Shown: positions 33,704 to 49,902, counted from the first letter of the stretch. The stretch is 64,000 bases of DNA from a bacterium (GCA_021788365.1 JAJYKS010000001.1:70113-134112), one strand, 5' to 3'. Notes: generated by a model not told the origin, from the sequence alone. Numbers and translations: made by a program.

Positions 33704-33710
33704 ATCGTTT

Positions 33711-34227: not shown

Positions 34228-34281
34228 CTAGTGTTTGATCGATCCTTTTAGTCTTTATTTCTTGTGAGTCTTCAGTTTTTG

Positions 34282-34963
34282 TTACTCGTAATATTCATTT
34301 TTTAAATCGAATCCATTTTCATCAATAACGAGATATTGGCCTATTCCATATTGAACCATTCCTGTATTAATAAAGTTTAAATTATTATCAATCTCGGCTA
34401 AATGTGTGTGTCCAAAAAGATAGAAATTATTTTTAGTCTGTTTATTTTTAATAATATTTTTGAGTTCTCTGTTCTGTTTTTCATATAGGAGTTTTAAGAT
34501 AAATTTATCTGATAACCTTATAATTTTCCCCGCTATTTTTTTAAAATACTTCGTTAACAACCTAGGAGGTCTCAGAATATTATCTTCGTCATTGAGGGCG
34601 TTATCAAGTTTGCTTAAAGATATATCATAATGATTTCCATGTTCTATGTGATAGGTCATATTTCCTATTTGAAGACGATATTTTTCTACTTGAATATCAG
34701 AGAAAAGTGATGTTTTTTTTATCCGTTAATGATTTTTTATCATGATTTCCATAAATATAGACTGTCTTCTTCGTTTTTAATAAAGGAAATAACTTTTTCC
34801 ATGGGGAATTAATAAAATCTGAAAAGCTGCAGATATAGGAATCCCAAAAATCACCGTTAATAATGACTCTGTCCACCTTAGAGATTATTCTTTTGAGAAA
34901 ATTGAATTTTTTTTCATCAAATTCTTCGTAGAGATGAGTGTCTGATAATACTATTGTTTTCAT
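34282..34963 (-). pseudogene. calcineurin-like metallophosphoesterase split by a frameshift
   Basis: Upstream ORF (34697-34963) has VLSDTHL...GDFWD...GNHD. Downstream ORF (34282-34659) has GHTH...G. The break coincides with a T9 homopolymer at about 34727-34735. Confidence 0.55.
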
Positions 34964-35033
34964 AAAGCTAATTATAGCAAGATTTCGCCCTTTCTCTTGA
35001 ATATCTGGTATTTTCTAGTACAATCTGTGCAAT

Positions 35034-37907
35034 GTGAGCACAGCCACGATTACACCCATACCGACTGCCACTTTATCCTCAACTGATCTTGAGCAGCTGC
35101 AGCTACTTCATCAAATCCAGAACCACGTTATGTCTGTAAATCATGCATTCCTGCTTACGGTAGCACTTGGACTACCACTTCCGATTAGCTGGCGATTGGC
35201 GTTTTACCACTTTTTAATCTCATTACCATTTCCCGCGCTTTCTCCTGTAGGTTTTACTCTCCTTGTTGTTCTTGGGCCGATTGTTACCATTCTTTTCCTT
35301 GTTCTTATTGTGAAGGTCATCGTTTGGTTTATTCGAACAGTAATTCCTTTTGCTGCCTCCAAAACAATGAAAACAACTCGTACGAATACCTATTTGGAAT
35401 TAACCTTTCCTGCCGATACCAGTAAATCCGCGTATGCTACCGAACAGTTGTATACACTAATTCACACCCTGGCCAAAAGAATATCATCTGCCGATTCGTT
35501 TCTGGGAAGAAAGAAACAGTTTTCGCTTGAGATTGTTTCAACCAAAAAAGAGGGAATCCGTTATTTGATGGTGGCGCCTGAGAAAGATGCCGAGATTTTA
35601 AAACGAAGTCTGTTATCGTATTTACCCGGTATAAAAATCAGTAAAGTTGACGATTACCTCACCGAGAAAAGAAGTGCCAGTGATGTAAGTAAAACAATTG
35701 TTGATCTGAAATTATCCAGTCATTTTGCCTTGCCTTTGACCAAACAGAAATCGTTATCTGAAAACGATCCTATTTCATATCTCACCGGTCAAATGGCGTC
35801 TTTAGAGGTTGGGAGCTTGGTTGCCTTTCAGTTAATTGCCACACCAGTACTAAATTCTTTCCATCAAAGCCAGGTCAAAGAAATGTACACGCTCCGACAA
35901 AAGATGTATGGGTCAGAAGCGTTAACTCCGGTATTACAAAAAGGACTTTTTGACCAACTCGCCACTATTCCGGTACTTTCCATTTTTGTTTTAGCGATTG
36001 AGGTTGTGTGGAAGATAGTTTCATTCGCTTTTATGTTTGTCTTTAGTATGTTTTTGGGATTTATCGATCCTCAAAGTAAATCCATACCGTTTTTAATGAC
36101 AACACAGGCTCTAGATAAGGCAATTCCCAGGGAGATATTAAACCCGTACGAGCAGGAGCTAAAAACGGTCGTCAAAGAGAAAATCGATCAACAGTTATTT
36201 GAATGCTCAATACGGATTCTGATTATGGGAAAGGACCAAGCTGATATTGAGAGTCGGTTAGAGGGGATTATGTCGTCGTTTGGCATGATGAGTAGCGCGT
36301 ATCAGTCGATCGTTGCTAAAAGCTCATTTATTGCACATTCTTTTGCCAGACGGTTTGCTGATTTTTCCCAAAGAAGGTTGTCTACAAATACCGGTTTTAA
36401 TCAAAATCCCATTCTTTCTGCCTCAGAACTATCCGATATTTACCATTTCCCATATACCGATACGACCAAAACAGAAGATTTGGTAAAAGTTCATAGCCGG
36501 GATTTACCGGCGCCCTTATCCCTGAAACAGGGAAAAAGATTGGACGTCGTTTTCGGTCGGAATAGCTACGGCAGCCAGACAACCGATATTGGCCTTACCG
36601 ATGATGACCGTTCCCGCCACGTCTACATTCTTGGCCAAACTGGTTCGGGTAAGACAACTATTATTTTCCATATGGCCAAAGGAGACATTCAAAAAGGCCG
36701 AGGCTTGGCTGTTATTGATCCTCATGGTGATTTAGCAGAGGATTTGCTGGCTACTATTCCTCCTGATAGGAAAAACGATCTTGTTTATCTTAATCCCTAT
36801 GATCTGAAATACCCGATCGGAATTAACCTTTTGGAACTGACGCCCAACCAAGACGAGGGTATGATGGAACTCGAAAAAGAACTAGTTTGTGAAGGCGTTA
36901 TTTCAATCTTTCGCCGCGTGTTTTCAAAAGATGAAAATGTCGACGCTCACCGGATCGAGTATATTTTGCGAAATACGATCTATACGGCCTTTACGGTTCC
37001 AAGCGCAACGCTTTTTACGATCTATGATCTATTAAATAACCCGCAATATCAAAAAAGCATAGTGAATAAACTCCATGACGAAAATCTGAAGAATTTTTGG
37101 AAATCAGAGTTTGGTCGGGCTGGCAACTATCAGATAGTGAAAATGGTATCCGGCGTGACAGCAAAAGTCGGAAGGTTCTTGTTTTCTCCTATTGCCAAAA
37201 GAATTCTGGAGCAGCCCAAATCGACCATTAACTTCGATAAGATTTTGGATGAGCAAAAAATTCTTATCTGTAACCTGTCCGAAGGAAAAATCTCGGAGGA
37301 CACAATGCAGCTACTGGGAATGACGATCGTTACTAAAATTCATCAGGCGGCCCTGCGACGGGCAAGAGTGAGTGCCAAACAAAGAACACCGTTTTATCTC
37401 TTTATCGACGAATTCCAGAATTTTGCTACCGCTTCATTTACCAGACTGCTATCCGGTGGACGAAAATTCGGCTTGAGACTAACTGTCGCTGAACAATCAA
37501 CCTCCCAACAGGAAGATAGGAATGTTGTGAATGTTATTCTAGCTAACGTCGGAACCGTTATTTGTTTTCGAACGGCAAGCCCGATTGATGAAAACCTCAT
37601 GCTTGCCCAGTTTTCTCCCTACGTTAAACCAGGAGAAATTGTCAATCTGCCACGATACAAGTTCTTTATGAAAATGTCAGCCATTGAGCCGGAGGAACCG
37701 TTCTCAGGAACCACACTCTCTATTGAGGAAAAGCGCAACCAGGACAAAATTAACGGCCTAATTGAATCCTCAAGGCGTAACTGGGCAAAAAAATACGTGC
37801 CGAAAGAACCAGTTGTCGTTCCAGTGGATAATAATCAACAAAAGATTGTTAAACAGGACAGCACACCTTCTAAAAGAGGTGGATTACCAGGTTCGAAAAG
37901 GAGATAA
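35034..37907 (+). CDS. type IV coupling protein-like P-loop ATPase (VirD4/TraD/TrwB-HerA superfamily) with N-terminal TM anchor
   Basis: N-terminal TM helices; Walker A HVYILGQTGSGKTT followed by VIDPHGDL (cf. TrwB VIVDPNGD / HerA VIDPHGEY); Walker B/DEFQNF region; basic C-terminal tail. Confidence 0.6.
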   Translation: MSTATITPIPTATLSSTDLEQLQLLHQIQNHVMSVNHAFLLTVALGLPLPISWRLAFYHFLISLPFPALSPVGFTLLVVLGPIVTILFLVLIVKVIVWFIRTVIPFAASKTMKTTRTNTYLELTFPADTSKSAYATEQLYTLIHTLAKRISSADSFLGRKKQFSLEIVSTKKEGIRYLMVAPEKDAEILKRSLLSYLPGIKISKVDDYLTEKRSASDVSKTIVDLKLSSHFALPLTKQKSLSENDPISYLTGQMASLEVGSLVAFQLIATPVLNSFHQSQVKEMYTLRQKMYGSEALTPVLQKGLFDQLATIPVLSIFVLAIEVVWKIVSFAFMFVFSMFLGFIDPQSKSIPFLMTTQALDKAIPREILNPYEQELKTVVKEKIDQQLFECSIRILIMGKDQADIESRLEGIMSSFGMMSSAYQSIVAKSSFIAHSFARRFADFSQRRLSTNTGFNQNPILSASELSDIYHFPYTDTTKTEDLVKVHSRDLPAPLSLKQGKRLDVVFGRNSYGSQTTDIGLTDDDRSRHVYILGQTGSGKTTIIFHMAKGDIQKGRGLAVIDPHGDLAEDLLATIPPDRKNDLVYLNPYDLKYPIGINLLELTPNQDEGMMELEKELVCEGVISIFRRVFSKDENVDAHRIEYILRNTIYTAFTVPSATLFTIYDLLNNPQYQKSIVNKLHDENLKNFWKSEFGRAGNYQIVKMVSGVTAKVGRFLFSPIAKRILEQPKSTINFDKILDEQKILICNLSEGKISEDTMQLLGMTIVTKIHQAALRRARVSAKQRTPFYLFIDEFQNFATASFTRLLSGGRKFGLRLTVAEQSTSQQEDRNVVNVILANVGTVICFRTASPIDENLMLAQFSPYVKPGEIVNLPRYKFFMKMSAIEPEEPFSGTTLSIEEKRNQDKINGLIESSRRNWAKKYVPKEPVVVPVDNNQQKIVKQDSTPSKRGGLPGSKRR

Positions 37908-38016
37908 AAAAAGTGTCCGCGTGTAGACACTAAAATAAACAAATAATAAGGCTAAAGTATCGATAATTACATCCTTATATCTTTATATATACATATAACT
38001 GGATACAATTAACTAT

Positions 38017-38790
38017 ATGTCTATTACTAATTGCTCAAAATCAGAACAACGAATTATTTCCTTTCTTTACTCATTCCGTTATTTACAAATTAAACAGATA
38101 CAAAAGTTATTTGATCATAAATCACCCAATCGAATTAAAATCTGGCTTAAACATTTACTGACAAATCATTTTATTTATGCCATTACAAACAAAAAAGACA
38201 GAACGAAACCGTATATTTATTGTTTGGATCAAAAAGCAAGCAAAATAGTAAGTGAGGTGATAAAAAAGGAAGATTTGGATAAAAGTTTTACCAATCGGAT
38301 ATACAAGGAAAAATCGTACAGCAGGAAGTTTATCAACAGAAACCTTTTTATCGTTGACTGTTATTTATATTTCTTAAAACATAAAGAAAAAGATTCAACG
38401 ATAAACTTTTTTACGAGACAAGATCTGTATGGCTATTCCTATTTCCCAAAACCCTTGCCAGACAGCTATATCGATGAGGAGGTAAAAACCGGACATAACA
38501 GATATTTCCTTGAGGTTTTTAGCTATAACGTTCCTATCAAATATCACTTTCAAAGAATTGAATACTATTTTGATTACTTTGATGATGGGCAGTGGAAAGA
38601 AAATACCAATGGCGCACCATTCCCGTCGCTTCTGATCGTGTGTGCCAATAACCAGTTAAAAAGAAAAATTTTCTTTCATGCAAAATCACTATTGGAACGA
38701 TCGTATGATGAAATTAGTGTCTTTCTAGCCACGGCCGACAAGATTACTCGGAATGATGAGAATGTTTGGGATGAAGTTAGAGTTGACTGA
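38017..38790 (+). CDS. replication-relaxation family protein (candidate relaxase)
   Basis: N-terminal wHTH QRIISFLYSFRYLQIKQIQKLF typical of Replic_Relax proteins of mobilizable elements. Confidence 0.55.
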   Translation: MSITNCSKSEQRIISFLYSFRYLQIKQIQKLFDHKSPNRIKIWLKHLLTNHFIYAITNKKDRTKPYIYCLDQKASKIVSEVIKKEDLDKSFTNRIYKEKSYSRKFINRNLFIVDCYLYFLKHKEKDSTINFFTRQDLYGYSYFPKPLPDSYIDEEVKTGHNRYFLEVFSYNVPIKYHFQRIEYYFDYFDDGQWKENTNGAPFPSLLIVCANNQLKRKIFFHAKSLLERSYDEISVFLATADKITRNDENVWDEVRVD

Positions 38791-38835
38791 TGAAGTAGAC
38801 CAAAAAATCGCAGATAAGAGTGATTAAGAGTTATA

Positions 38836-39228
38836 TTACAGATAAACAGCTTCTCCCACCTTAAATGCCAGCAGCGCGACGTCTTCTTTAATGTTATTCA
38901 CGCCTTTATTCCCCATGTACACTATGGCGTGAGTAGTACCGGTAATTATTTGTAGGGTCCCGTTAGCTACACTGTGAGTTGCATTACCGAAACGATTAAA
39001 GCCCTCTTCAAAACCACCCACGGCGGAGCTCAATCTACTTGCTAAGGCTACGTGTGTTTTTTCAACTCCGGTTGCCACAGCTTCCTGTAAGTTACCAAAA
39101 GCAAGGGCCGTAGTTTTCTTTACATCGCCAGTTACGTTGGTAGCTGCCTCAGAAATATCGGAAGCAGTCTTGCCGATAACTTTGAGGGCAGTCTTGGCAA
39201 CGCCCGGTGCAACATCTGTCAATGCCAA
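38836..39228 (-). CDS. hypothetical protein (weak; lies in a higher-GC patch between the two relaxase copies)
   Basis: 130-aa Ala/Gly/Thr-rich ORF; composition differs from the surrounding AT-rich DNA. Confidence 0.25.
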   Translation of the reverse strand: MALTDVAPGVAKTALKVIGKTASDISEAATNVTGDVKKTTALAFGNLQEAVATGVEKTHVALASRLSSAVGGFEEGFNRFGNATHSVANGTLQIITGTTHAIVYMGNKGVNNIKEDVALLAFKVGEAVYL

Positions 39229-39262
39229 ACTTGGCTTTTATACCAAAGTTGACCTTTTCGGC

Positions 39263-39625
39263 ATGAGATATATGATTCGCCCCGAACCATCCTGTTACTT
39301 GTCTATTGAAGACACTAATAAAGTGATTAAGCGACATTTTTTAGACATTTTTGACTATTTTGTGCCTGATGACTTATATAAACGGATTGATAAGTATATG
39401 TATTATTTTGAGAAACGCTTTTGGCAAGAGAATACGGATAAGCAATTCCCAGAAATTATCCCTGTTTGTCCGAATAAAGCTGCCAAAACCTTCCTTGAGA
39501 AAACAATTGCCAGAAGACTAAAAGAAAAAGAATTACTCATAGGTTTTTATTTATCCAGCTGGGAAGAGATTAGGCAGTATGGAATGTGTAGGCAAGCGTT
39601 ACATAAAGTTGAAATGGAAAATTAA
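39263..39625 (+). pseudogene. truncated second copy of the replication-relaxation gene (C-terminal half only)
   Basis: FLDIFDYFVPDDLYKRIDKYMYYFEKRFWQENTDKQFPEIIPVCPNKAAK aligns with YFLEVFSYNVPIKYHFQRIEYYFDYFDDGQWKENTNGAPFPSLLIVCANNQLK of the full-length copy. Confidence 0.5.
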
Positions 39626-39694
39626 ACAAATTAATTTTGCTAGTAGTACAATTCGCTGATTTGAAAATCGTTTGTAAGCAAAAGGACTATAAAC

Positions 39695-40099
39695 TTAAAA
39701 AGTTTTAGAAAGCGGAGTGAGTTCGGCAGTTTGCGTTGCCTCATTGCTCAACACCGCGCCCTTGTACGGCAAAATAGCTTGTATCATTTTGTCGGTATTG
39801 GTTTTGCTTGCGTCGTATACAACTTCGCCTCTGCCATCAACTGTTCCGTTCACAACTTCTTTGCCGACAAAACCAACGGTCGCATTCACAACACCAGGTG
39901 TATCCTTGAGGGCATTTTCTACATTGTAAGGGCAGGATGCGCAGTCCATTCCATCAATCTTTAGCGCAACGTGGCGCAAGTTATTCGTATTTGCCGCTTG
40001 CGTAGTGTTTGCTGGGTTGGCGTTGTGCGTTGCCAAACGAAAGCCGATAACACCGATCAAAACGAGAGGGACTGCGATTAAAACAAGTTTCTTGTTCAT
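39695..40099 (-). CDS. merP: MerP-like periplasmic heavy-metal-binding protein (HMA domain)
   Basis: Signal/TM helix then GMDCASC metal-binding motif in a ferredoxin-like HMA fold; last gene of the mer operon. Confidence 0.65.
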   Translation of the reverse strand: MNKKLVLIAVPLVLIGVIGFRLATHNANPANTTQAANTNNLRHVALKIDGMDCASCPYNVENALKDTPGVVNATVGFVGKEVVNGTVDGRGEVVYDASKTNTDKMIQAILPYKGAVLSNEATQTAELTPLSKTF

Positions 40100-40101
40100 A
40101 G

Positions 40102-40473
40102 TTAGTAAAGGTATTTATAAACGAGCGGCGCGAGAATAGGCACGAGCACGAATGTGAACAAAAGATACAGTGCAATCATCACACAGAGAGCAATCACAAC
40201 CTGCACCGCTATTTTCTTATTGTCGAGCTTGCCCGATCCGTCTCCGCAATTGCAAACGGCCTTTTGTTTCTTTCTGAAATAGAACCAACCGGCGATAACA
40301 AAAAACAGAAGCGCGCCGACAAGGAAGTAAGGTTTGTTATAGCCGATTGAGAGGATGCTTCCCGCAGTACCTACTCCAAGCGCAATCAGAATAAGAGGGC
40401 CGAGGCAGCAGAGCGAAGCGAGGAATGCTCCTATAATCCCGATTTTGAGAAATGTTTTGTCGTCGTTGTTCAT
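40102..40473 (-). CDS. merT: mercuric ion transport protein MerT
   Basis: First TM helix LASLCCLGPLILIALG (MerT Cys-Cys pair), second cytoplasmic pair CNCGDGSG, 3 TM, ~120 aa. Confidence 0.8.
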   Translation of the reverse strand: MNNDDKTFLKIGIIGAFLASLCCLGPLILIALGVGTAGSILSIGYNKPYFLVGALLFFVIAGWFYFRKKQKAVCNCGDGSGKLDNKKIAVQVVIALCVMIALYLLFTFVLVPILAPLVYKYLY

Positions 40474-41873
40474 ATGCAGCAGCTTAATTTTGAAATGTCT
40501 TTGGTAAAAGACAGTGCTACGATTTTTATTGCTTCGGAAAGCGTCGGGAACATCGGCAGAGAATTCACTACATCGTCAATGGTATTTTTGTTTTTCACCA
40601 ATATCATAGCTTCGGCGATAAGCTCTCCGGCATTCGGCGCGAGAATATGCACGCCGAGAATTTGTTTTGTCTGGGGGTGAATCGCCATTTTGATAAGCCC
40701 CTCGGTTCGTCGCATGATGATTGCCTTTGGCACATCCTCAAACGAAACCGTGCGGCAGGCGCAAACGCCCATTTGCTTCATTTGCTCGTCCTCGGTAAAA
40801 CCGACACCGGCAAGCTGGGGATCGGTAAAAATGGTATAGGGCACAGCGTTGTAATCAACAGAAAGTGTTGTGCCCTTGAGCGCGTTTTCTGCCGCAAGCG
40901 TTCCCTCGCGTCCGGCAGTTGGTTCAAGCCGCAAGGGCCCGCTTGTAACATCGCCGACCGCAAAAATATTTTTGGTGGAAGTTTGAAAATACTGATTGAC
41001 GACAATCGCTTGCCCTTTGTTTACTTCAACACCGACAACATCAAGACCGAGTCCTTGCGTGTTGGGCGTTTTGCCTACCGCCAAAAGTATTTCATCAGCG
41101 GATATTTCCTCTTGCACCCCTCCGATTTGATACGAGACAACTTTTTTATCGCCCTCTTTGCGCGCGCTTTTTACCTCAACATTTGTTTCGACTGTTATCC
41201 CTTCCTTTGAGAGTATCTCGGCGAGGCGATCAGTAAGTATTTTTTCAGAGTGCGGAAAAATTGAATCGCCGCGCTGCAAAATGGTTACTTTCGTGCCAAA
41301 GCGGGAAAACATTTGAGCAAATTCCAAGCCAAGCGGCCCCGAGCCGATAACGATTAACTCCTTTGGCTGCTTTTCCATTTTCAACGCTTTGATATGCGTA
41401 ACAAATCCAGTTTCTCGGATGCCTTCAATCGGCGGCACATTGGCGGTAGAGCCGGTGGCAATAACAAATTTTTCTGCACTTAACTTTTCGCCGTTCACTT
41501 CGATCTTGTTTTGAGAGATAAATTTTGCCTTCCCCTCGATTGCCGTTACATACTCTAAATTTTTCAGCACCTTTTCGTATTTCTCTTGGCGCAACTTTTC
41601 CACAAGCGAGAGTTCGTCTTGCACGACTTTTTGAAAATCAAAATTTTTTACTTCAAGCTCAACGCCGGCAACGCGGTGATGTTTGGCGTGGTGTAAAATT
41701 TCACCGGCGTACAAAAGCGTTTTTGACGGTACACAGCCAACATTGACGCAGGTGCCGCCGAGCGGGAGTCCGGCGTTCGCAAGGGCAGTTTTTGCCTTGA
41801 GTTCATTAGCCCGGATTGCCGCCGCAAACGCGCCTGCTCCGCCACCGATAACGATAAGGTCAAATGTTTTCAT
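40470..41873 (-). CDS. merA: mercuric reductase MerA (core enzyme, no NmerA domain)
   Basis: FAD-binding GGGAGAFAAA, redox-active GGTCVNVGCVPSK, C-terminal Cys pair ...KLSCCI, pyridine nucleotide-disulfide oxidoreductase dimerization domain. Confidence 0.9.
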   Translation of the reverse strand: MKTFDLIVIGGGAGAFAAAIRANELKAKTALANAGLPLGGTCVNVGCVPSKTLLYAGEILHHAKHHRVAGVELEVKNFDFQKVVQDELSLVEKLRQEKYEKVLKNLEYVTAIEGKAKFISQNKIEVNGEKLSAEKFVIATGSTANVPPIEGIRETGFVTHIKALKMEKQPKELIVIGSGPLGLEFAQMFSRFGTKVTILQRGDSIFPHSEKILTDRLAEILSKEGITVETNVEVKSARKEGDKKVVSYQIGGVQEEISADEILLAVGKTPNTQGLGLDVVGVEVNKGQAIVVNQYFQTSTKNIFAVGDVTSGPLRLEPTAGREGTLAAENALKGTTLSVDYNAVPYTIFTDPQLAGVGFTEDEQMKQMGVCACRTVSFEDVPKAIIMRRTEGLIKMAIHPQTKQILGVHILAPNAGELIAEAMILVKNKNTIDDVVNSLPMFPTLSEAIKIVALSFTKDISKLSCCI

Positions 41874-42177
41874 AATAGTTGATTCTTTCTTTCATCACCC
41901 CGACAATAGGTGATTTTTTGAGTTTATAATAAACAGTGCGAAATTCGCGGCGGCTCTCCACCATATCCGCCTTGTGGAGTTTGTGGAGCGTGTGAGAAAC
42001 GGCAGAGACCGAAACACCGACAACTTCGGCAATGTCTCCCACAGAAAGCTCTTTGTGACGGCATAGGAGATAACAGATTTTCAGCCGCGTGGGATCGCCG
42101 ACCATGTTAAATTCTCGCGCGCAAGCGAGAATCGCGTCTTTATTCTTGAGTTCTTTTTTGAGTTTATCCTTTTTCAT
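41860..42177 (-). CDS. ArsR/SmtB-family metalloregulatory repressor
   Basis: ACAREFNMVGDPTRLKICYLL...LSVGDIAEVVGVSVSAVSHTLHKL. Start set at the internal Met (MKKDKL). The stop overlaps the merA start. Confidence 0.75.
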   Translation of the reverse strand: MKKDKLKKELKNKDAILACAREFNMVGDPTRLKICYLLCRHKELSVGDIAEVVGVSVSAVSHTLHKLHKADMVESRREFRTVYYKLKKSPIVGVMKERINYYENI

Positions 42178-42195
42178 ACTTGAATCTATATTCAA
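42178..42195 (-). promoter_or_regulatory. candidate ArsR operator (inverted repeat TTGAAT-N4-ATTCAA) abutting the arsR start
   Basis: Plus strand cTTGAATctatATTCAAa directly upstream of the arsR ATG. Confidence 0.25.
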
Positions 42196-42347
42196 ATGAT
42201 AGCAGACGGAAAGAAAAAGGACAACAAGTATTTTGTGCACAGGGAGTTCCTTAACCTTTTCCGCGCAGGAAGAGTGGGTAGGAAAAGAAAAAGGACTATA
42301 AAAAAACCGCAAGCGTAAGAGATTAGTCTCCCGCCTGCGGCCAAGAG

Positions 42348-42653
42348 CTACTCCTTCATTATTTCCGATAACCGACATGGGGTAAAATACCAGTCTCGCT
42401 CGACTGGTAGCCCTAATTTGCCTTTATTATTCTGCAGTTCGGATAGACTAAAGTATCCAAGCTCTTTTTCGAACCCGTCCACCAATCCATAGAACAAGTC
42501 ATTGCCGTCAAATTCAATAGCGTACCATGTCCAGGAAAAATTCGGATAGAAAAACTTAGCAATCACCACCGGATCCTTGACTTCCTCCTGTGAGTAAAGT
42601 GGCGGTAATTTACCACGCAATTCTTTGGTTAACAATTCCATAATTTTCACCAC
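42348..42653 (-). CDS. DUF2958-family protein (common on conjugative plasmids and ICEs)
   Basis: FSWTWYAIEFDGNDLFYGLVDGFEKELGYFSLSEL matches the DUF2958 core. Confidence 0.55.
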   Translation of the reverse strand: MVKIMELLTKELRGKLPPLYSQEEVKDPVVIAKFFYPNFSWTWYAIEFDGNDLFYGLVDGFEKELGYFSLSELQNNKGKLGLPVERDWYFTPCRLSEIMKE

Positions 42654-42931
42654 CTTTCTAAAATTAAATAATCTGGATCAGGAATGTTTGTCCTGTCCAT
42701 TGAAAACGGGGCATGGGGTGAAAAACAGATGTCAAAAGTTTTTTAGAAGTTTATGAAGAAAAAAGGATTTTAACGCCTGTCAGAAAAATGCGTACCTTAG
42801 CAACATTCTCTTATTTAAATTGCATTTTTCTACAGGCTTAAACACCCACCTTTTGATAGATGTTTTGAACCCCATATAATGAGAAGAAACAGGACAGGAC
42901 AAAAAGCTCTTGTACTCTAATATAACGTATT

Positions 42932-42944
42932 CTACAATGTGTAG
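42932..42944. promoter_or_regulatory. BlaI/CopY-type operator-like palindrome CTACA-atg-TGTAG
   Basis: Perfect 5-bp inverted repeat 4 nt upstream of the blaI-like ATG; TACA/TGTA half-sites as in BlaI/MecI/CopY boxes. Confidence 0.4.
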
Positions 42945-42947
42945 TAT

Positions 42948-43328
42948 ATGAGACCAAAAGCGTTGAGTAATCTCGAACTAGAAATTATGAAGGTGGTTTG
43001 GGAGTGTCAGCGATGTTCAGTACGTGATGTATTAAGGCAGGTAGGCAACAGCCGTAAACTAGCTTATACGACTGTGGCTACCATTCTTCAGCGACTGCAT
43101 AAAAAAGGACTCGTTGAGAGAAAAAGTGACAAACTTGCATATATTTATTCCCCAATGCTATCCAAAAAATCATACGGTAAACAACTGACAGAGTTATTTA
43201 TCAAAAGATTTGTCAGGTCCTTTGGTGATGTGGCGATTGCCTCGTTTGCAGAAGGGATAGAAAGTCTGCCTCTGCAAAAAAGAAACAATTTACTGACACA
43301 ACTTCAGAACTATGATAAATCAAAATAA
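42948..43328 (+). CDS. BlaI/MecI/CopY-family transcriptional repressor
   Basis: LSNLELEIMKVVWECQRCSVRDVLRQV...YTTVATILQRLHKKGLVERK is a penicillinase-repressor-type winged helix. Confidence 0.8.
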   Translation: MRPKALSNLELEIMKVVWECQRCSVRDVLRQVGNSRKLAYTTVATILQRLHKKGLVERKSDKLAYIYSPMLSKKSYGKQLTELFIKRFVRSFGDVAIASFAEGIESLPLQKRNNLLTQLQNYDKSK

Positions 43329-44307
43329 ATATCTCCTCTTATTTTTGGGTCTGCTTTTTCTCCTTGGCATTGGTGTGGTGATTGACCTCGGCAAAGTGCT
43401 TCATTTGACTTTTCAGCATACTGCCTATTATTGTCAGGCATTCATAAAGTCATTCTCGCTAAGAATTCCTCACAGCTTAGGAACATTCCTTCTTTTTTTT
43501 ATCGGAGCCAGCGTCATGGCGGCAGCAGTGAAATTATTGAGCGCGTATATTCAGATTCATACAATGAAAAGATCACTTCGTCGGAACGTTATTGTTAATG
43601 AAAGTTTTCAGTTGATTTTGAAAGGGCTTAACCTAACCCATCAGGCACTACTAATAAAAGACAATAAACCATTTGCGTTTTGTTTTGGCCTACGGCGTCC
43701 GAAAATTTATCTTTCTACTAAGATGTACAACCTATTGGAGCAAAAGGAATTAGAAGCGGTACTCTTGCATGAAAGCTACCATTTACAAAAGAGCGATACC
43801 TTAACCCTGTTTGTGGCATCTTTTGTACAATTTCTCTTTCCTTTTTTTCCTGTAGTTTCAGATCTTGTCCGAAACTACAGAATAGAGCGAGAATTAAATG
43901 CCGACAAGGAAGCTCTTAAATCTATTAGCGATCCTGATATCCTTTTAAATACTTTTAAAAAGCTTTTCGTATATACAAATACTAATCCGGCATTTGTTTC
44001 AGCGATTATAGATAGCGAAACAATAGAATCTCGTATAAAGGCCCTTACAGCGCAAAACTTTTTGTGGCGGAAGTTTAGTACGAAAAATATGTTTATTTCT
44101 CTCCTTTCGTTTTCAATCTTCTATTTACTGGCGCTTGCACCCGTCTTTGCGATAAAACAAAATAATAAAAATAGTGAAGTAATGATATGCACAGTAAGCA
44201 ATGATTGTTCTCGTTGGTGTAGAGAGCATAGTACTGTTACTCCAAACATACCTTCTAGATCTCCAAATACATCATATCCCTATACCCCCGTCGTTCACTC
44301 CATATAG
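43312..44307 (+). CDS. BlaR1/MecR1-type M56 membrane metalloprotease without a beta-lactam sensor domain
   Basis: KPFAFCFGLRRPKIYLSTKMYNLLEQKELEAVLLHESYHLQKSD (HExxH) matches M56; 4+ TM; Cys-rich C-terminal tail (CTVSNDCSRWCREHS). Confidence 0.8.
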   Translation: MINQNKYLLLFLGLLFLLGIGVVIDLGKVLHLTFQHTAYYCQAFIKSFSLRIPHSLGTFLLFFIGASVMAAAVKLLSAYIQIHTMKRSLRRNVIVNESFQLILKGLNLTHQALLIKDNKPFAFCFGLRRPKIYLSTKMYNLLEQKELEAVLLHESYHLQKSDTLTLFVASFVQFLFPFFPVVSDLVRNYRIERELNADKEALKSISDPDILLNTFKKLFVYTNTNPAFVSAIIDSETIESRIKALTAQNFLWRKFSTKNMFISLLSFSIFYLLALAPVFAIKQNNKNSEVMICTVSNDCSRWCREHSTVTPNIPSRSPNTSYPYTPVVHSI

Positions 44308-44314
44308 TTTCGTC

Positions 44315-44354
44315 TTGACAACTATTTAATTATCTACTACATTTAGTAGTAGAT
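44315..44354 (+). promoter_or_regulatory. candidate promoter (TTGACA-N17-TACATT) overlapping palindrome ATCTACTAC-attta-GTAGTAGAT
   Basis: 9-bp perfect inverted repeat seen in sequence; shares a CTACA-N3-xGTAG core with the site at 42932. Confidence 0.4.
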
Positions 44355-44374
44355 CGGTTGATAAATTCCCTGAA

Positions 44375-45115
44375 ATGATTACTATGGCAGAAGAGATGAA
44401 TAAAAGAATAAATATTAAAGTAATACTAGTTGGTCTTTTAGTCATTGCCGCCTTTCTTATCGGCTCACTTTGGACCAAAGTACAAATGTTAGAGAAAGGG
44501 ACAACTGTAGCTAGTGCTACTGCTACCGTCCCAAACCAACCCAATCAACCACAAGCTCCTGCACCCGGACAAAAAGTAAATGTCTCTGTGGGACACTTGC
44601 CTCCTAAAGGAAATCCAAATGCCAAAGTAAAAATTGTCGCATTTGAAGATTTCCGTTGTCCGTTCTGCGACAGATTTTTTAAAGATGCCGAAGCGCAAAT
44701 TATTAAAGATTACGTAGATACAGGTAAAGCGGTTATTTACTACAGAAATTATCAGTTCTTAGGTCCGGCGTCAGTTGTTGCCGGCAATACCGGCGAATGC
44801 GCCAATGAACAGGGTAAATTCTGGGAGATGCATGATTACCTCTATCAAAATCAACCAGATGAATCAGATACATCAATGTATACCGTTGATAAACTTACAT
44901 CTATCGCTTCAAATCTTGGTTTAAGTGGTGACAAATTCAAGTCATGCTTAGAAAGTAAAAAATATGATAAGAATGTAGCTGATGATTTAAGCGCCGGACA
45001 ACAAGCAGGTGTACAAGGGACACCCACAGTCTTTATCAATGGCATATCAATTGTTGGGGCACAACCGTACAGTACATTTAAAACAATAATTGATCAGCAA
45101 CTAGCAAAATTATGA
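44375..45115 (+). CDS. DsbA-family thiol:disulfide oxidoreductase (membrane-anchored)
   Basis: N-terminal anchor; thioredoxin fold with CPFC active site (KIVAFEDFRCPFCDRF); DsbA-like helical insert. Confidence 0.7.
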   Translation: MITMAEEMNKRINIKVILVGLLVIAAFLIGSLWTKVQMLEKGTTVASATATVPNQPNQPQAPAPGQKVNVSVGHLPPKGNPNAKVKIVAFEDFRCPFCDRFFKDAEAQIIKDYVDTGKAVIYYRNYQFLGPASVVAGNTGECANEQGKFWEMHDYLYQNQPDESDTSMYTVDKLTSIASNLGLSGDKFKSCLESKKYDKNVADDLSAGQQAGVQGTPTVFINGISIVGAQPYSTFKTIIDQQLAKL

Positions 45116-45684
45116 AGAAGATATTTAGCAAAAAGTTTCTTATAAAAACTTTACTCATTGCCGCAGTGTATCTTATCACAATCAATTATTTGATGAATAT
45201 CTCATTAGTAAAAAATACTATTCTTGGTAGTTATCCACTAGGTTATAAATTTAGACTACTTGGTGACCTTTTAGAAGGTATGTGGACCGTAATGACGCAC
45301 GTAACCTTATTTGTTCTTATACTAAATTCTTTACTTACCGGTGCTATTTTAACCCTTCTTGAACAAAAAATTAGGATATTACGAGAAATGGGCCCCTTAC
45401 ATATCCTGGCAGGAGGAAGTACATTCCTTTCGATTGTAGGAAGTGGTTGTGCTGCCTGTGGGCTACCCATCCTTTCACTTCTGGGACTCAGTGGGGCTGT
45501 GCTTTATCTCCCTTTTAAAGGCGGAGAGCTTCTTTACATATCGTTTGTACTTCTTCTTAGCTCCTTCTACTTTATAGCCAAAGATTATGTTTCAATTCAA
45601 TGTTCCTGGGAGCAGAAGAAGAATAGTTCTTTTACGAAACCTGTTTTAAAGACTTTTGTAGGTCATATTGACGCTAGAAACTAA
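45112..45684 (+). CDS. membrane protein with intramembrane CxxC module (paralog of the TM part of 46431-48095)
   Basis: LSIVGSGCAACGLPILSLLGLSGAVLYLPFKGGEL aligns with IGAFAASCPVCSGLLLSLIGISGGLSVFPFKGLEL of the downstream gene. Confidence 0.5.
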   Translation: MKKIFSKKFLIKTLLIAAVYLITINYLMNISLVKNTILGSYPLGYKFRLLGDLLEGMWTVMTHVTLFVLILNSLLTGAILTLLEQKIRILREMGPLHILAGGSTFLSIVGSGCAACGLPILSLLGLSGAVLYLPFKGGELLYISFVLLLSSFYFIAKDYVSIQCSWEQKKNSSFTKPVLKTFVGHIDARN

Positions 45685-45686
45685 AT

Positions 45687-46418
45687 ATGCGGAAATTGTT
45701 TGCGATCATAAAAGAAAATAAATTACCTGCAATCATACTCGTAGTAGCCGTATTGATGATCGGATTTTTTGTGGCTAACACTTTTCATACGAATAGTACC
45801 AATAGTCAACCGACTACTAGTCAAAACACAAATTCTCTTTATCAGGAACTCTTAAGTATCTACAATAACATTCCCACTCAATCTGGAAAAACTAATTTTC
45901 TCAAACAAAGCAATAACCTCACCCAAAAAGTTGATCCGGAACTCGTAGATTTAGATAGTCAAATCATTACCTGTAGTGCGAATGTGGATAGTCTTCTTTC
46001 CAGTCAGCCAAGCACCGGTGGTAGTTGCGTTGGGGGAAACACCCCCTTAAGTAGCATAAAGGGGAAATATTTAAGCGGTCAATGCTGCGGAACCCTCATG
46101 GATACCAAAGAAAGGCATGAGAATCTTGAAAAATTACAAGCCTATAAAGGTATGCCAGATATTCCGCTTGATCCCATGCATACACCTATTGAGATGGCAA
46201 AAGGATGGATCGACTATGATAACTCGACCCAACTTACATCTGAAGAACAGAAAGTTTACGATCAGGCATACGCCATATCAAAAGAAAAACCCTGTTGCTG
46301 CAAATGCTGGCACTATTTTGTCAACGAAGGCATTGCCAAAAAAATGATAAAAGACGGTACATTTAATTCAAAACAGATCGCTGACTATTGGGATGCCTCA
46401 GATATTTGCGGAGTATGA
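45687..46418 (+). CDS. membrane-anchored cysteine-rich extracytoplasmic protein (PCC...C.H domain)
   Basis: N-terminal TM anchor; GQCCGTL and LTSEEQKVYDQAYAISKEKPCCCKCWHYF align with LTTEQEEHIRTLAENIYRPCCNNSTFFQDCNHG of 46431-48095. Confidence 0.5.
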   Translation: MRKLFAIIKENKLPAIILVVAVLMIGFFVANTFHTNSTNSQPTTSQNTNSLYQELLSIYNNIPTQSGKTNFLKQSNNLTQKVDPELVDLDSQIITCSANVDSLLSSQPSTGGSCVGGNTPLSSIKGKYLSGQCCGTLMDTKERHENLEKLQAYKGMPDIPLDPMHTPIEMAKGWIDYDNSTQLTSEEQKVYDQAYAISKEKPCCCKCWHYFVNEGIAKKMIKDGTFNSKQIADYWDASDICGV

Positions 46419-46430
46419 AAATAAAGAGCT

Positions 46431-48095
46431 ATGGAAAAATCAATAAGAAGAGAAAAAGAGTATCAGTGCCCAATTTGTAAATTGCATTATAAAGAAAGGG
46501 TTTGGGCAACCAAATGTAAAGCATGGTGTAGCAAACATGAAAGCTGCAATTTAGCTATTACTCGCCATTCACTTGAAGCAAAAAATGATAATATCGAAAA
46601 AACAGCTATTCAACAAAGAGACACTCTTTCCCATACAGAAACAAGAGACTCAAAACACGAGAAACAATCAAGTCAAAGATTACTGACCTTTCTTTTTTAT
46701 CTCTTAATTGGTATAACCGCCTCGATTGGGCTTTTTCTCCTCTATGATTTCTTTCTTACCAGAACCTCAAGTATCACCACGCTTATTCTTAATACTGTAA
46801 ACGATCCTTTTTACCTGTGGTTTTATAGTCTCTCCACGTTTGTAGCAATCATTCTTTTTGGTATTGATGTCGCAGTTTCCATCTATCTATTCAGGAGCTT
46901 ACACGTAGCTCATTTAAAGGAACAGGGCGGCAATACGGTGGGGGTTATTATTGGAGCCTTTGCCGCTTCTTGTCCTGTCTGCTCAGGACTTCTTCTCTCT
47001 CTTATCGGCATTTCAGGAGGACTGAGTGTTTTTCCATTTAAAGGACTTGAGTTAAAGACACTTTCGGTACTCTTTCTCGCTGTGCCACTTTTCTTCCTTT
47101 TGAGGAGATTAAAAAGTCATAACTGTGAAGATACCTGTTCACATCTAGAAAACGCCGCGTTTCAAACAAAAGATCGTGTACTCTTTGGTTCACTTTTTGT
47201 CTTTTTGCTTGCCGAAATACTTCTTGGTTACTCTTTTCTTCGTGCAGAGCCTATTCTAGCGGATTTATTTTATCCCATCCCGAAAGCCACTACTTCAGCT
47301 ACTGCTCCTAATGCGCAGCTATCGCAGCAAGTACAACAAGAAGTATTACCCACCAGTGGGTTTCAAACTCCAATAGTTTTGGGTAAGGTGATTCCAGAAA
47401 TGGTAGCAAACGGTATTATTGATGTCCAAAAACTCCAAGATTTGTATAAGGAGCGGGGTGGTATCCCCCAAGAGGAGATGGATCTTTTGACAAAGCAGTC
47501 AGACAAACCGTTAGTAATTACAAGCAAAAACCAGTTCTGGCTTGTCACTTTTCTCTGGCCTTTAGGATTAGCAAATAAAATGATTATTAATAACCAGAGC
47601 CCTCTCGCCGGTAAAGATTTATTTAATTTTGCCTCAACCGGGGGTTGGAATTTGGGTCAAGCGAAAAATGGAGGCAGTTACTTTAACCAATATTCAATTA
47701 TTCCCCTGACTACGGAACAAGAAGAGCATATAAGAACTCTTGCCGAGAATATATACAGACCATGTTGTAACAACTCAACCTTTTTCCAGGATTGTAACCA
47801 CGGTTCAGCCGCGCTTGCTCTCATTGAACTTGGTGTAGCCCAAGGTTTATCAGATCAGGAAATCTATAAAACAGTCCTTCATTTTAACTCTTTCTGGTTC
47901 CCACAAAATTACACGGAGATGGGCTTATACTTCAAAGCCGTAAAACATACTGATTGGAATGATGTTGATCCAGAGCTAGCTCTGTCGAAAGACTATTCAA
48001 GCATTAGTGGCTGGTCTCAAAATGTCGATGCCCCAATTCGCCAAATTCCAGGACTTTTGCCAGCCCAAAATGGTGGTGGGAGCTGTGGTACATAG
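46431..48095 (+). CDS. fusion protein: N-terminal zinc ribbon, CxxC membrane module, C-terminal PCC cysteine-rich domain
   Basis: YQCPICKLHY...CKAWCSKHESC; TM region with ASCPVCSG...PFKGLEL; C-terminal domain with PCCNNS..CNHG; ends GGGSCGT. Confidence 0.5.
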   Translation: MEKSIRREKEYQCPICKLHYKERVWATKCKAWCSKHESCNLAITRHSLEAKNDNIEKTAIQQRDTLSHTETRDSKHEKQSSQRLLTFLFYLLIGITASIGLFLLYDFFLTRTSSITTLILNTVNDPFYLWFYSLSTFVAIILFGIDVAVSIYLFRSLHVAHLKEQGGNTVGVIIGAFAASCPVCSGLLLSLIGISGGLSVFPFKGLELKTLSVLFLAVPLFFLLRRLKSHNCEDTCSHLENAAFQTKDRVLFGSLFVFLLAEILLGYSFLRAEPILADLFYPIPKATTSATAPNAQLSQQVQQEVLPTSGFQTPIVLGKVIPEMVANGIIDVQKLQDLYKERGGIPQEEMDLLTKQSDKPLVITSKNQFWLVTFLWPLGLANKMIINNQSPLAGKDLFNFASTGGWNLGQAKNGGSYFNQYSIIPLTTEQEEHIRTLAENIYRPCCNNSTFFQDCNHGSAALALIELGVAQGLSDQEIYKTVLHFNSFWFPQNYTEMGLYFKAVKHTDWNDVDPELALSKDYSSISGWSQNVDAPIRQIPGLLPAQNGGGSCGT

Positions 48096-48168
48096 AATTT
48101 GTCAAAAATAATCAATTTCTCCTCCAGATTGAAATCTTAAGGACTGACGTTTAATTTCTCATATATAT

Positions 48169-48552
48169 ATGATGTTTACATACATGTGTAGAACTTGTGG
48201 CTGTTCATTTAGGTCAAGAGATTTTGGTAATGTAGAGAGATTTATTGAGCCATGTATCTTATTACTTCTCTCAAAAGATTCTTCTCACGGATATGGTCTG
48301 ATGGAGGATTTAGAAAAGCATTGCGGTGAAAAAGTGGATATTGGCGATTTTCATAGAACCTTAAGAAGGATGGAAAGGGATGGTTGGGTCAAATCCGACT
48401 GGGAAAAGAATGAGGCTGGTGCTGATAGGAGAGTCTATACGATTACCCAAGAAGGTAAAGAATTCTTAAAGTCAGCGGCTAACTCACTTATCCGTACAGA
48501 CAAACTTATACATAAATTTTTAGAGGGTTTCCAAAAGAGTCAATCTGTATGA
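48169..48552 (+). CDS. PadR-family transcriptional regulator
   Basis: ILLLLSKDSSHGYGLMEDLEKH...FHRTLRRMERDGWV...RRVYTITQEG is a PadR winged helix; the N-terminal Cys-rich extension is of uncertain reality. Confidence 0.6.
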   Translation: MMFTYMCRTCGCSFRSRDFGNVERFIEPCILLLLSKDSSHGYGLMEDLEKHCGEKVDIGDFHRTLRRMERDGWVKSDWEKNEAGADRRVYTITQEGKEFLKSAANSLIRTDKLIHKFLEGFQKSQSV

Positions 48553-48643
48553 AATTGTCAATAATTCTTTCTACCAAAAATACGGAAACAAATTGGAACG
48601 CATTCAGACTTGCTAATCTGGCTTTAACTCACGGAGATGTGAG

Positions 48644-48910
48644 CTATTTAACGGCCTTCTTTTGTTTCAGCTCGTTATAAATTTTAAGTAGTGTTTCCGG
48701 ATCCTTATGACTCATCGTGTGAACTGTTGCCTGCAAATGCTCAAGTAAAACTATTGCCATTTCAGGTGTAGCATTTTTAGGATCGATAGTTTTTAGGAAT
48801 CGGATAACACTATCGATATCCTTTTCGTTCATTTCGTATCTGTCGGATTTAGTCATACCGTTATTATACAACACGTTAGTAAATATACTTTCCCAGGTTG
48901 ATAAAATCAA
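48644..48910 (-). CDS. hypothetical protein
   Basis: 88-aa ORF (apparent TTG start with GGAG RBS); no family recognised. Confidence 0.3.
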   Translation of the reverse strand: MILSTWESIFTNVLYNNGMTKSDRYEMNEKDIDSVIRFLKTIDPKNATPEMAIVLLEHLQATVHTMSHKDPETLLKIYNELKQKKAVK

Positions 48911-49418
48911 AACACTCCTGAACGTGGCTTTTGCTTTCGATCCTGCGCATAATCTCCCGGCTGCAGCTTTGAGAAAGAATATTTAAGCTTCCTTCCCAAA
49001 GAATTTGCCGATCAATGATCGCCAATTTCCTGTGGCTATATTCTGCCGAAAGAAGCACTTGAACGCCAAGCATTTCCAGCTTTCTTATTTCCTGCTCTGC
49101 CTGCGTTCTCATGGTTAAATCGTGATCTTCGGGATTTCGGGTGATAACGTATATTTTTACCTTTCTGCTAACTAAGGCTTCAAAAATCCGCAGGAACGAA
49201 AACATCCTGGTGGTTGTTATATATGGGCTTTCGATTATAATCTCCTTTTTGGCGGCCTTTAAGTCCTTCAAAAACCGGTTGTAAAACGTCGTCTCGTCAA
49301 AAAGTTGGGAATGGGTAAGATCCGGCGATAAGTGTAGGACCCTTTCTGCCAATTTGCTAATTAGCTTATTCATGGGTATCACCTCCGTTCTTGTTTGTGG
49401 CTGAATTATCGGGTACAA
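48876..49418 (-). CDS. PLD-family (HKD) nuclease-like protein
   Basis: SHRKLAIIDRQILWEGSLN is an HxK(x4)D(x6)GSxN HKD motif, single copy (Nuc/Bfi-like). Confidence 0.6.
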   Translation of the reverse strand: MYPIIQPQTRTEVIPMNKLISKLAERVLHLSPDLTHSQLFDETTFYNRFLKDLKAAKKEIIIESPYITTTRMFSFLRIFEALVSRKVKIYVITRNPEDHDLTMRTQAEQEIRKLEMLGVQVLLSAEYSHRKLAIIDRQILWEGSLNILSQSCSREIMRRIESKSHVQECFDFINLGKYIY

Positions 49419-49565
49419 TCAGGCTAACTGAGCCGTTATGGTAGGTAAACCCTAGCTCTTTGAGTTTCTGATATACTTTGAGTAAGTTAGGAAAGAGTGA
49501 GTTCCACCTGGCGGACAGTGAGCTCACCCTTCGACAAGCTCAGGGTTTTGGCGGATTATATAGAC

Positions 49566-49865
49566 ATGGCATGGTACACATATATTCTTCTTTGCGATGG
49601 ACTGTCTTATTATGTTGGGTTGAGTGGTAATTTGGAACAAAGAATTGCTTCGCATAAATCCAAGCAAAATATCGGCACAAAAGAATTTTCCCAGATAGAG
49701 CTTGTTTACCACGAAACCTACAAGACCCGCCATGAAGCAGAACTACGTGAAACACAACTCAAGAAATGGAGTAGAGCAAAGAAGAAAGCTTTGATAGATG
49801 GAGACATTGGTACATTGCGAAAGCTAAGCCATAACCCTAAACTTGTCGAGGATACATTGGGATAA
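49566..49865 (+). CDS. GIY-YIG nuclease family protein
   Basis: MAWYTYILLCDGLSYYVGLSGNLEQRIASHK is the GIY-YIG core; start set at the internal Met. Confidence 0.65.
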   Translation: MAWYTYILLCDGLSYYVGLSGNLEQRIASHKSKQNIGTKEFSQIELVYHETYKTRHEAELRETQLKKWSRAKKKALIDGDIGTLRKLSHNPKLVEDTLG

Positions 49866-49886
49866 TAATGGTGAGCCCGTCGAACC

Positions 49887-49902
49887 ATCCCAATGAGGTC
49901 AC
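49887..49902. repeat. attR-side direct repeat (copy of the tRNA-Glu 3' end)
   Basis: Exact 16-mer atcccaatgaggtcac with further degenerate T-arm-like similarity upstream (gcccgtcgaacc). Confidence 0.6.

Follow-up and report, generated by a model that had tools for sequence, protein, structure and literature searches.

A conserved cassette of intramembrane CxxC modules and exported cysteine-motif domains on an integrated bacterial element: a candidate transmembrane thiol relay

Three adjacent genes, here called A, B and C, are located on an integrated element in a stretch of 64,000 nucleotides of bacterial DNA (GCA_021788365.1, JAJYKS010000001.1:70113-134112). This whole stretch is referred to as the window, and positions are counted from its first letter. 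Each of the three contributes a component to a single conserved cassette, and none is a split copy of another. Gene A encodes a membrane module with a CxxC motif predicted to lie within the bilayer, B an anchored, exported cysteine-rich domain, and C a fusion of a related membrane module with an exported domain of another type. The best reading of the cassette, which we hold with middling confidence, is a transmembrane thiol relay that would act under copper or soft-metal stress.

A first-pass annotation, made by a model from the sequence of the window, had read A and B together as the split equivalent of C. As a statement of homology this equation fails, because B shares at most a core of about 50 residues with the C-terminal domain of C. 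The annotation had also argued that the two modules act together, perhaps with the CxxC relaying electrons or metal to the exported domain. Fusions and gene adjacency uphold the view that the CxxC membrane module and the exported cysteine-motif domains belong together.

Results

The open reading frames (ORFs) of A, B and C are present at the positions given in Table 1, and all four peptides quoted in the first-pass annotation are found in them. Hydropathy prediction yields four transmembrane (TM) segments for A, one N-terminal anchor followed by an ectodomain for B, and five segments plus an ectodomain for C. In terms of predicted segments, A plus B thus sums to C without its N-terminal domain, and the earlier picture of the topology fits. 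The CxxC of the module is predicted inside the third membrane helix, and the end of TM4 on the cytoplasmic side. The only cysteines of A are C113 and C116, both invariant in the 44-member alignment of its family, and C164, which is located at most one position away from a column with cysteine in more than 90% of the family members. The counterpart after the last module helix of C is the pair C232/C236. The residues C181, C184, C236, C445, C446, C455, H457 and C552 are invariant in the C family (40 members), and the B family has nine invariant cysteines, including those of the PCCCKCWH motif and the C-terminal CG.

The homology of the membrane module of A with the TM region of C, which had been proposed beforehand, is borne out by three comparisons. 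BLASTP aligns A101-165 with C166-233 at 35% identity (E = 3e-8). The Smith-Waterman score of A against C is 104, compared with 38.5 +/- 6.1 in 500 composition-preserving shuffles, none of which reached it (z = 10.7). A profile of 44 A-family proteins and one of 40 C-family proteins match in hhalign with a probability of 97.6% (E = 2.7e-12) over A75-171 and C133-234. The membrane module of C and gene A are paralogs of ancient origin.

The soluble domains behave differently in pairwise comparison. For B against the C-terminal domain of C, BLASTP over the stretch quoted in the first-pass annotation gives E = 0.67 over 18 residues. The real score was equalled or exceeded by 25 to 68 of 500 shuffles (z = 1.2-2.1); scores not above shuffled controls were what the annotation itself had named as refuting its alignment. 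The first hhalign comparison of the two profiles returned a probability of 0.6% (E = 0.1). Moreover, a search of 1.84 billion representatives with the B-family profile found 157 matches (E <= 0.001), none of them with the length of C-family proteins (480-570 aa). When more diverse alignments were used, hhalign placed B and C in a common register, LTxEQ...PCC...CxH, with a score of 36.4-38.6, a probability of 25-35% and E = 4e-4 to 8e-4, where the ranges reflect which profile served as the query. Column shuffles scored 16.2 +/- 2.6 against the real 36.4, and none of 60 reached it (z = 7.8).

A third class of ectodomain, discovered among the loci around B homologues, connects the two. It is characterised by C-E-Y-C-C-G ... 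C-G-C-A-H ... G-L-A-K-Y-L-I, and its stand-alone forms terminate in MVGGC. The class-3 hidden Markov model (HMM) matches both B-type and C-type proteins. In hhalign, class 3 matches B with 94.4% (E = 9e-8, 56 columns; column-shuffle z = 18.9, 0/60) and the C-type with 97.6% (E = 4e-12, 95 columns; z = 27.0, 0/60), while reversed profiles gave background scores in the ectodomain comparisons. Residues 182-241 are the only part of B that aligns to C-type and class-3 ectodomains; the remainder of the B and C ectodomains does not align. In the AlphaFold models of B and C, the elements surrounding the motif follow one another in the same way: helix, cysteine motif, helix and helix. Since class 3 bridges both in the profile comparisons, a core of about 50 residues is probably an old feature common to B and the C-terminal domain of C. 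It would comprise a helix (LTxEQ), a vicinal CC, a loop that varies, CxH and a further helix or two, and probably precedes a glycine-rich tail ending in cysteine. The proposed full-length match therefore does not stand, and what is left of it is a distant core in the same register. For the putative "CC...CxH" superfamily of B-type, C-type and class-3 domains, the profile similarity of the core exceeds shuffled controls, while the pairwise comparison of B with C does not.

To describe the arrangement of these modules in other genomes, module-specific HMMs were run on 80 genome loci retrieved by the B profile and on 80 loci from metagenomes retrieved by the C profile; individual loci are cited by L numbers. 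The search for other genomes with either arrangement, suggested in the first-pass annotation, shows that both split and fused forms recur among the 160 loci. All 120 listed C-family proteins are fusions of the module with the C-type ectodomain, and class 3 is fused to the module in four loci of DPANN archaea (L048 6884-8101; L042 7413-8648; L047 2829-4142, minus strand; L036 1596-2921). Class 3 also stands alone (L010, L066, L067, L077, L055, L071, L035). The C-type ectodomain occurs in four forms: with zinc ribbon and module, with the module, with the zinc ribbon, or alone with its own anchor, the stand-alone genes encoding about 330 aa. Split and fused forms are consequently real for the module and the C-type and class-3 ectodomains, but not for A plus B against C. 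What genuinely corresponds to C in split form is a separate gene for the C-type ectodomain, which may or may not be accompanied by a free-standing module gene (e.g. L086, L140, L167, L019), and a fully split set of A, B and stand-alone C-type ectodomain is present in L140, L167 and L086. No fusion of B with the module was found among 270 B-family proteins or the 160 loci.

B is located immediately upstream of the C-type gene in 39 of the 80 C-centred loci. B and the C-type ectodomain are distinct, co-occurring partners and not alternatives. In view of this co-occurrence, the length of the B-profile matches and the absence of a B-module fusion, the idea of B as a fission product of C was rejected. 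A recent duplication, the second part of the earlier proposal, is ruled out: no repeated DNA links the three genes in the window, and the homologous codons of A and C are only about 45% identical, the DNA being saturated. A scores 8e-71 against the model of its own subfamily and 1e-9 against the other, and for each copy its own model is about 60 orders of magnitude better. The two subfamilies are separate and each is widely distributed, and the order A-B-C is itself recurrent across lineages. The reading of A plus B as a split C, in which a recent duplication on the element would have preceded a fission or fusion event, can draw on the homologous membrane modules, the topologies that add up and the weak B/C core. 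Against the evidence above it is nevertheless largely refuted and very improbable.

The gene order around the cassette is conserved. A DsbA-like gene immediately precedes 30 of the 56 stand-alone module genes and immediately follows three more, and B directly follows 28 of the 56. The order DsbA-A-B-...-C recurs in L098, L102, L110, L130, L131 and L162; in four of these loci, a His-rich gene separates B from C. Likewise, B-C-PadR recurs in L084 and L085, and BlaI-BlaR1-DsbA-A-(B) in L005, L011, L019, L020 and L086.

Neighbours were counted in 80 B-centred and 80 C-centred loci, with the context of B taken within 5-10 kb. A DsbA-like gene is found in 51/80 B-centred (within 5 kb of B) and 19/80 C-centred loci, and a P1B-type heavy-metal ATPase with a CPC motif in 42/80 and 13/80, respectively. 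An unannotated His-rich secreted protein follows with 29/80 and 25/80. Lower numbers were obtained for CsoR (10/80 and 8/80), HMA (11/80 and 7/80), multicopper oxidase (8/80 and 4/80) and MerA (6/80 and 3/80), and a CopR-like HTH-TRASH regulator, counted in B-centred loci only, is present in 11/80. Mercury was considered as the main context and rejected in view of the few loci with MerA nearby. In L083, the genes for CsoR, ATPase, ArsR, B, C, a MerA-like protein, a DsbD_2-cupredoxin fusion and HMA form a row, and L084 additionally carries an ars operon. The cassette is cargo of metal-resistance islands.

The hosts of the cassette, as labelled in their records, are Patescibacteria, DPANN archaea and Thaumarchaeota. 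B of the window is 54-58% identical to B in records of Nitrosotalea and Nitrosopumilales (Thaumarchaeota), and an A-like module gene is located directly upstream of B in loci of this group (L014, L015, L017, L021, L025, L033, L034, L041). In L033, which belongs to Ca. Nitrosotalea sp. TS, the module gene is directly followed by B. The degree of identity and the shared arrangement suggest that the cassette was transferred between bacteria and archaea.

The C-type family comprises at least 985 proteins, the B-type family at least 339 and the A-type family at least 117. Neither Pfam nor NCBIfam holds a usable match to A, B or C, the only hits being DUF3796 (E = 0.062) and a mycoplasma family (18 bits, cut-off 125). 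A scan of every member of the A (44) and C (40) alignments up to E = 10 returned only DUF7128, for the zinc ribbon. Searching PDB sequences with the family profiles gave no hit for C and for B only the immunoglobulin J chain (E = 0.11), which was set aside as a chance match due to cysteine content. Foldseek of the C model against the PDB gave no match at E <= 0.001, and no description of these families was found in the literature. By these searches, A, B and C are uncharacterised families without a relative in Pfam, NCBIfam or the PDB.

The zinc-ribbon-like domain is found in 75 of the 120 listed C-family members, and in the structure model of C the predicted local distance difference test (pLDDT) is 90-95 for residues 10-50. 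PF23447 (DUF7128) matches 25 of 40 C-family members weakly (best E = 4.6e-5), with the window protein below the threshold. The cysteine spacing, C-x2-C-x13-C-x3-C-x5-C, presumably resembles that of the TRASH motif. Elsewhere, the domain is encoded by separate ORFs of 55-70 aa beside module or ATPase genes (L004, L016, L050-L052, L054, L063, L066, L102, L130, L134, L136, L137).

Several further observations concern the partners of the cassette. Distant B-domain homologues from the representative search are fused to SCO1/SenC (P0418, 360 aa) and to a YtkA-like domain (P0371, 508 aa), and both partner domains are tied to copper delivery in other organisms. High-GC, actinobacterial-looking B homologues (e.g. 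P0382, P0399, P0402) keep GPCCCxCW and have a C-terminal GCGG or CCGG. The His-rich secreted protein, of about 178 aa (L081 6452-6988), is the commonest neighbour of the C-type gene and often stands between B and C; it has the motifs H-x-H ... HTHD-x-SG-x-IH and no Pfam match. True DsbD_2-cupredoxin fusions and a DsbD_TM-thioredoxin fusion are encoded by separate genes inside the same islands (L086 6731-7786 and 9777-11528; L083 9934-10971). Membrane cysteine proteins of two unrelated kinds, the DsbD type and the new module, are therefore neighbours in these islands.

Discussion

Four kinds of module make up the cassette. The first is a 4-TM module with CxxC in the third helix and one or two cysteines just after TM4, and the second an optional, predicted cytoplasmic, cysteine-rich zinc-ribbon-like domain. 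The third kind comprises ectodomains anchored in the membrane, of which no fewer than three classes exist (B-type, C-type and class 3); what these have in common is limited to the core of about 50 residues and a glycine-rich tail ending in cysteine. The fourth is a DsbA-like exported thioredoxin. The window holds the membrane module twice, as ancient paralogs, free-standing in A between the DsbA-like gene and B, and fused in C. In a transmembrane thiol relay, reducing equivalents would pass from the cytoplasm to the intramembrane CxxC by way of the cysteines after TM4 and the zinc-ribbon domain, and from there to the DsbA-like protein and the cysteine motifs of the ectodomains. As a result, surface thiols would be kept competent for Cu(I) or soft metals, or wrong disulfides formed by metal catalysis would be repaired. 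A relay of electrons or metal through the intramembrane CxxC is plausible in the light of context and motifs, and its direction and cargo are inferred.

The transfer of reducing equivalents, as in DsbD/CcdA/ScsB, is favoured because it gives the DsbA-like neighbour a role and would work in organisms that have no quinones. It also agrees with what is known of disulfide repair in the periplasm as a factor in copper tolerance. To our knowledge, most organisms of the Candidate Phyla Radiation (CPR) and DPANN lack quinones and generally have no respiratory chains. A more far-reaching version is tentative, and we consider it rather doubtful. In this version, the 4-TM CxxC module would represent a hitherto unrecognised kind of transmembrane thiol relay with no relationship to DsbB, VKOR or DsbD/CcdA, and DsbA-like proteins of quinone-poor CPR bacteria, DPANN archaea and Thaumarchaeota would have it as their partner in the membrane. 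The module would drive Cu(I)-handling surface domains of novel fold, and the whole would be a mobile, cross-domain defence against extracytoplasmic copper.

Several points weigh against a thiol relay for copper stress. The helix that bears the CxxC is the least confident part of the C model (pLDDT 42-61 for residues 160-200, with low values at 187-201). The cysteine-plus-histidine motif, the vicinal CC and the cytoplasmic cysteine pair look more like metal ligands than like a redox pair, which favours a relay of metal instead. Many stand-alone C-type ectodomain genes have no module gene within 8 kb (e.g. L144, L147, L158, L160), and there are proteins with zinc ribbon and ectodomain that have no CxxC module; the ectodomain therefore does not strictly need a module in cis. 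Finally, copper specificity is guilt by association, and mercury and arsenic genes are also nearby.

DsbD, CcdA and ScsB, with the partners ScsC or DsbC/DsbG, likewise place a membrane protein with essential cysteines in the bilayer beside an exported thioredoxin-fold gene, and ScsB-ScsC (Scs) is a copper-tolerance system. DsbD and CcdA are the classical precedent for fused versus split forms: DsbD and ScsB are fused to extracytoplasmic partner domains and CcdA is the bare core, which parallels the fused and free forms of the module. The architecture is different, however. DsbD/CcdA has one cysteine on each of two TM helices in a core of 6-8 TM segments built as an inverted repeat, whereas the module has four TM segments and both cysteines in one helix with two residues between them (C113/C116; C181/C184). 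The ectodomains of the cassette are helical with cysteine/histidine motifs, while those of DsbD/Scs are Ig-like or thioredoxin-like. Neither A nor C matches DsbD_TM (PF02683) or DsbD_2 (PF13386) at E up to 0.1, nor do the 44 A and 40 C members at E up to 10, and profile scans and Foldseek against the PDB found no similarity in sequence or fold to DsbD/CcdA/ScsB.

A serious rival, though in our judgement an unlikely one, is a metal-ion relay of the Mer type. In this case, the cysteine/histidine site of the ectodomain would capture Hg(II) or Cu(I) and hand it to the CxxC and on to the cytoplasmic cysteine pair or zinc ribbon, in the manner of MerP, MerT/MerC and NmerA, and the module would be a thiol-lined metal transporter without any electron relay. 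MerC, MerT and MerF are proteins of 2-4 TM segments with a cysteine pair in a TM helix (GCAAC in MerC) and a cytoplasmic pair (CGPDGC in MerC). A like pattern, with its sidedness as predicted, is present in the module, where CAAC or CPVC in the TM helix is followed after TM4 by C232/C236 in C or the single C164 in A. The Mer transporters are likewise paired with an exported cysteine protein on mobile metal-resistance elements, and true MerT/MerC genes occur in the same islands. The GCAAC-x-P helix of Tn21 MerC, for which the query used here agreed with annotated merC at 100% identity, resembles GSGCAACGLP of A, and CGPDGC resembles C-GDGT-C-P of the C family; hhalign selects exactly these two registers. 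Vicinal CC, CxH, a flexible C-terminal cysteine tail and a cytoplasmic cysteine pair are typical ligands of soft metals. Furthermore, MerA, MerT and MerP are encoded on the element of the window, and a MerA-like gene adjoins C in L083. The MerA-like protein of the window (467 aa) presumably falls short of Tn21 MerA by about 100 residues, as would be expected if the N-terminal HMA domain (NmerA) were missing. On the other hand, hhalign of Tn21 MerC yields non-significant 6.3% for the A family and 0.4% for the C family, the MerC family (PF03203) is not matched, and MerT (PF02411) matches one of 40 C members weakly (E = 0.12). By these scores, the likeness to MerC is a motif-level resemblance and not membership. 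The CxxC of the module is in the third helix, whereas the cysteine pair of Mer transporters is in the first. MerA is rare near the cassette, where the export ATPase and DsbA-like genes dominate. Copper import would oppose the co-encoded efflux pump, and the tight adjacency of DsbA and module would have no purpose under pure transport.

Two further readings, an oxidase resembling DsbB and a sensor, have a lower probability than the thiol relay and the Mer-type relay. As an analogue of DsbB or VKOR, which we regard as improbable, the module would re-oxidise the DsbA-like protein, which in turn would introduce structural disulfide bonds into the B and C ectodomains as its clients. The order of a DsbA gene followed by a gene for a CxxC protein with 4-5 TM segments, seen at 30 of the 56 module genes, is the classic dsbA-dsbB/VKOR arrangement, VKOR is known as a fusion with a thioredoxin-like partner, and the ectodomains have 4-9 conserved cysteines. 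However, no profile match to DsbB (PF02600) or VKOR (PF07884) was found, and the second cysteine pair in an extracytoplasmic loop that both require is absent from A. A quinone acceptor is not expected in most CPR and DPANN organisms, which argues against an oxidase of this type, and the conserved cytoplasmic cysteine, which sets the module apart from DsbB/VKOR, and the zinc ribbon would be without purpose. A transmembrane sensor, in which the ectodomain would perceive metal or redox state outside and signal to the cytoplasmic zinc ribbon, is scarcely probable at all. It would account for proteins with zinc ribbon, a single TM segment and ectodomain but no CxxC module (L145, L150, L154, L156), and the regulators BlaI/BlaR1 and PadR flank the cassette. 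Yet the proteins have no output domain, 45 of the 120 listed C-family proteins lack the zinc ribbon, and the genes upstream already provide BlaR1/BlaI as a sensor and regulator dedicated to this task.

For B, a comparison with Cox17 provides a lead only. Its KPCCCKC presumably resembles the Cu(I) motif KPCCAC of Cox17, and one distant B homologue, P0418, is fused to SCO1/SenC; the fold is different.

How ultra-small CPR and DPANN organisms handle extracytoplasmic thiols and toxic soft metals is a field with essentially no prior knowledge. If the module is a partner of DsbA or a metal relay, it would be a new solution to a textbook problem. In addition, four reusable modules are now defined for annotation, and gene pairs that belong together are identified. 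Culturable carriers exist in Nitrosotalea and Nitrosopumilales.

Genomic context in the window

The genes are carried on an element, as had been assumed in the first-pass annotation and is borne out by a tRNA-Glu site and a direct repeat. The exact repeat ATCCCAATGAGGTCAC, identical to the last 16 nt of the tRNA-Glu gene, is present at 32026-32041 and 49887-49902, 17.86 kb apart, and both copies bracket the stretch of low GC content. The repeats look like attL and attR of an integrated mobilisable element.

Table 1. Coordinates of the cassette, its neighbours and the integrated element in the window.
Feature	Position	Strand	Description or basis
Gene A	45112..45684	+	190-aa ORF; stand-alone 4-TM module, intramembrane CAAC (C113, C116), Cys after TM4 (C164)
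A residues 75-171, homologous to the C membrane module	45334..45624	+	hhalign, BLASTP, shuffles
CAAC codons of A, residues 113-116	45448..45459	+	C113, C116 invariant in 44 family members
Gene B	45687..46418	+	243 aa; N-terminal membrane anchor and exported Cys-rich domain
B core, residues 182-241	46230..46409	+	Helix, PCCCxCWH, helix, helix, terminal Cys
Gene C	46431..48095	+	Fused, 554 aa: N-terminal Cys5 zinc-ribbon-like domain, CxxC membrane module, fifth TM, C-type ectodomain
Zinc-ribbon-like domain of C	46431..46610	+	C13, C16, C29, C33, C39; predicted cytoplasmic
C membrane module, residues 133-234	46827..47132	+	CPVC (C181, C184) at nt 46971-46982; Cys pair C232/C236 after TM4
C-type ectodomain, residues 300-554	47328..48092	+	Carries RPCCNNSTFFQDCNHGSA and C-terminal GGGSCGT
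DsbA-like exported thioredoxin	44375..45115	+	CPFC active site, residues 95-98; stop overlaps A start by 4 nt
BlaI-like repressor	42948-43328	+	Pfam Penicillinase_R 2e-24
BlaR1/M56-like membrane sensor-protease	43312-44307	+	Pfam Peptidase_M56 3e-14
PadR-family regulator, directly after C	48169..48552	+	Pfam PadR 3.5e-16
Integrated element, ~17.9 kb	32026..49902	.	16-nt direct repeat = 3' end of tRNA-Glu; GC dip across span
tRNA-Glu(ctc)	31966-32041		Last 16 nt recur at 49887-49902
Serine recombinase	32003-33703	-	
VirD4/TraG-like protein	35034-37907		
Replic_Relax protein	38017-38790		
Divergent mer-type genes	39695..42378	-	Pfam HMA, MerT, Pyr_redox_2 + Pyr_redox_dim, HTH_5
Anchored HMA/MerP-like gene	39695-40099	-	
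MerT	40102-40473	-	
MerA-like oxidoreductase	40470-41873	-	467 aa, C-terminal CCI

The spacing of A, B and C is tight, and they are read in the same direction as the BlaI-like, BlaR1-like, DsbA-like and PadR genes; the BlaI/BlaR1 pair heads this string. A terminator scan of the window found sites no more frequently than in shuffles, and the operon boundaries are therefore drawn from gene spacing alone. The assignment of the DsbA-like product follows from profile scores above the gathering cut-offs (Thioredoxin_4 7e-36, 124 bits, cut-off 23.2; DSBA 2e-17, 64 bits, cut-off 25.6) together with its CxxC active site.

The mer-type genes of the element are under an ArsR-type regulator and not a MerR-type one. 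The element also encodes a PLD-like and a GIY-YIG protein. A possible role of the BlaI/BlaR1 pair is to sense metal or thiol stress for the cassette. The BlaR1/M56-like protein has a C-terminal extracytoplasmic cysteine/histidine motif, CTVSNDCSRWCREH, and its homologue in L022 retains CLQGDACSAWCKDH.

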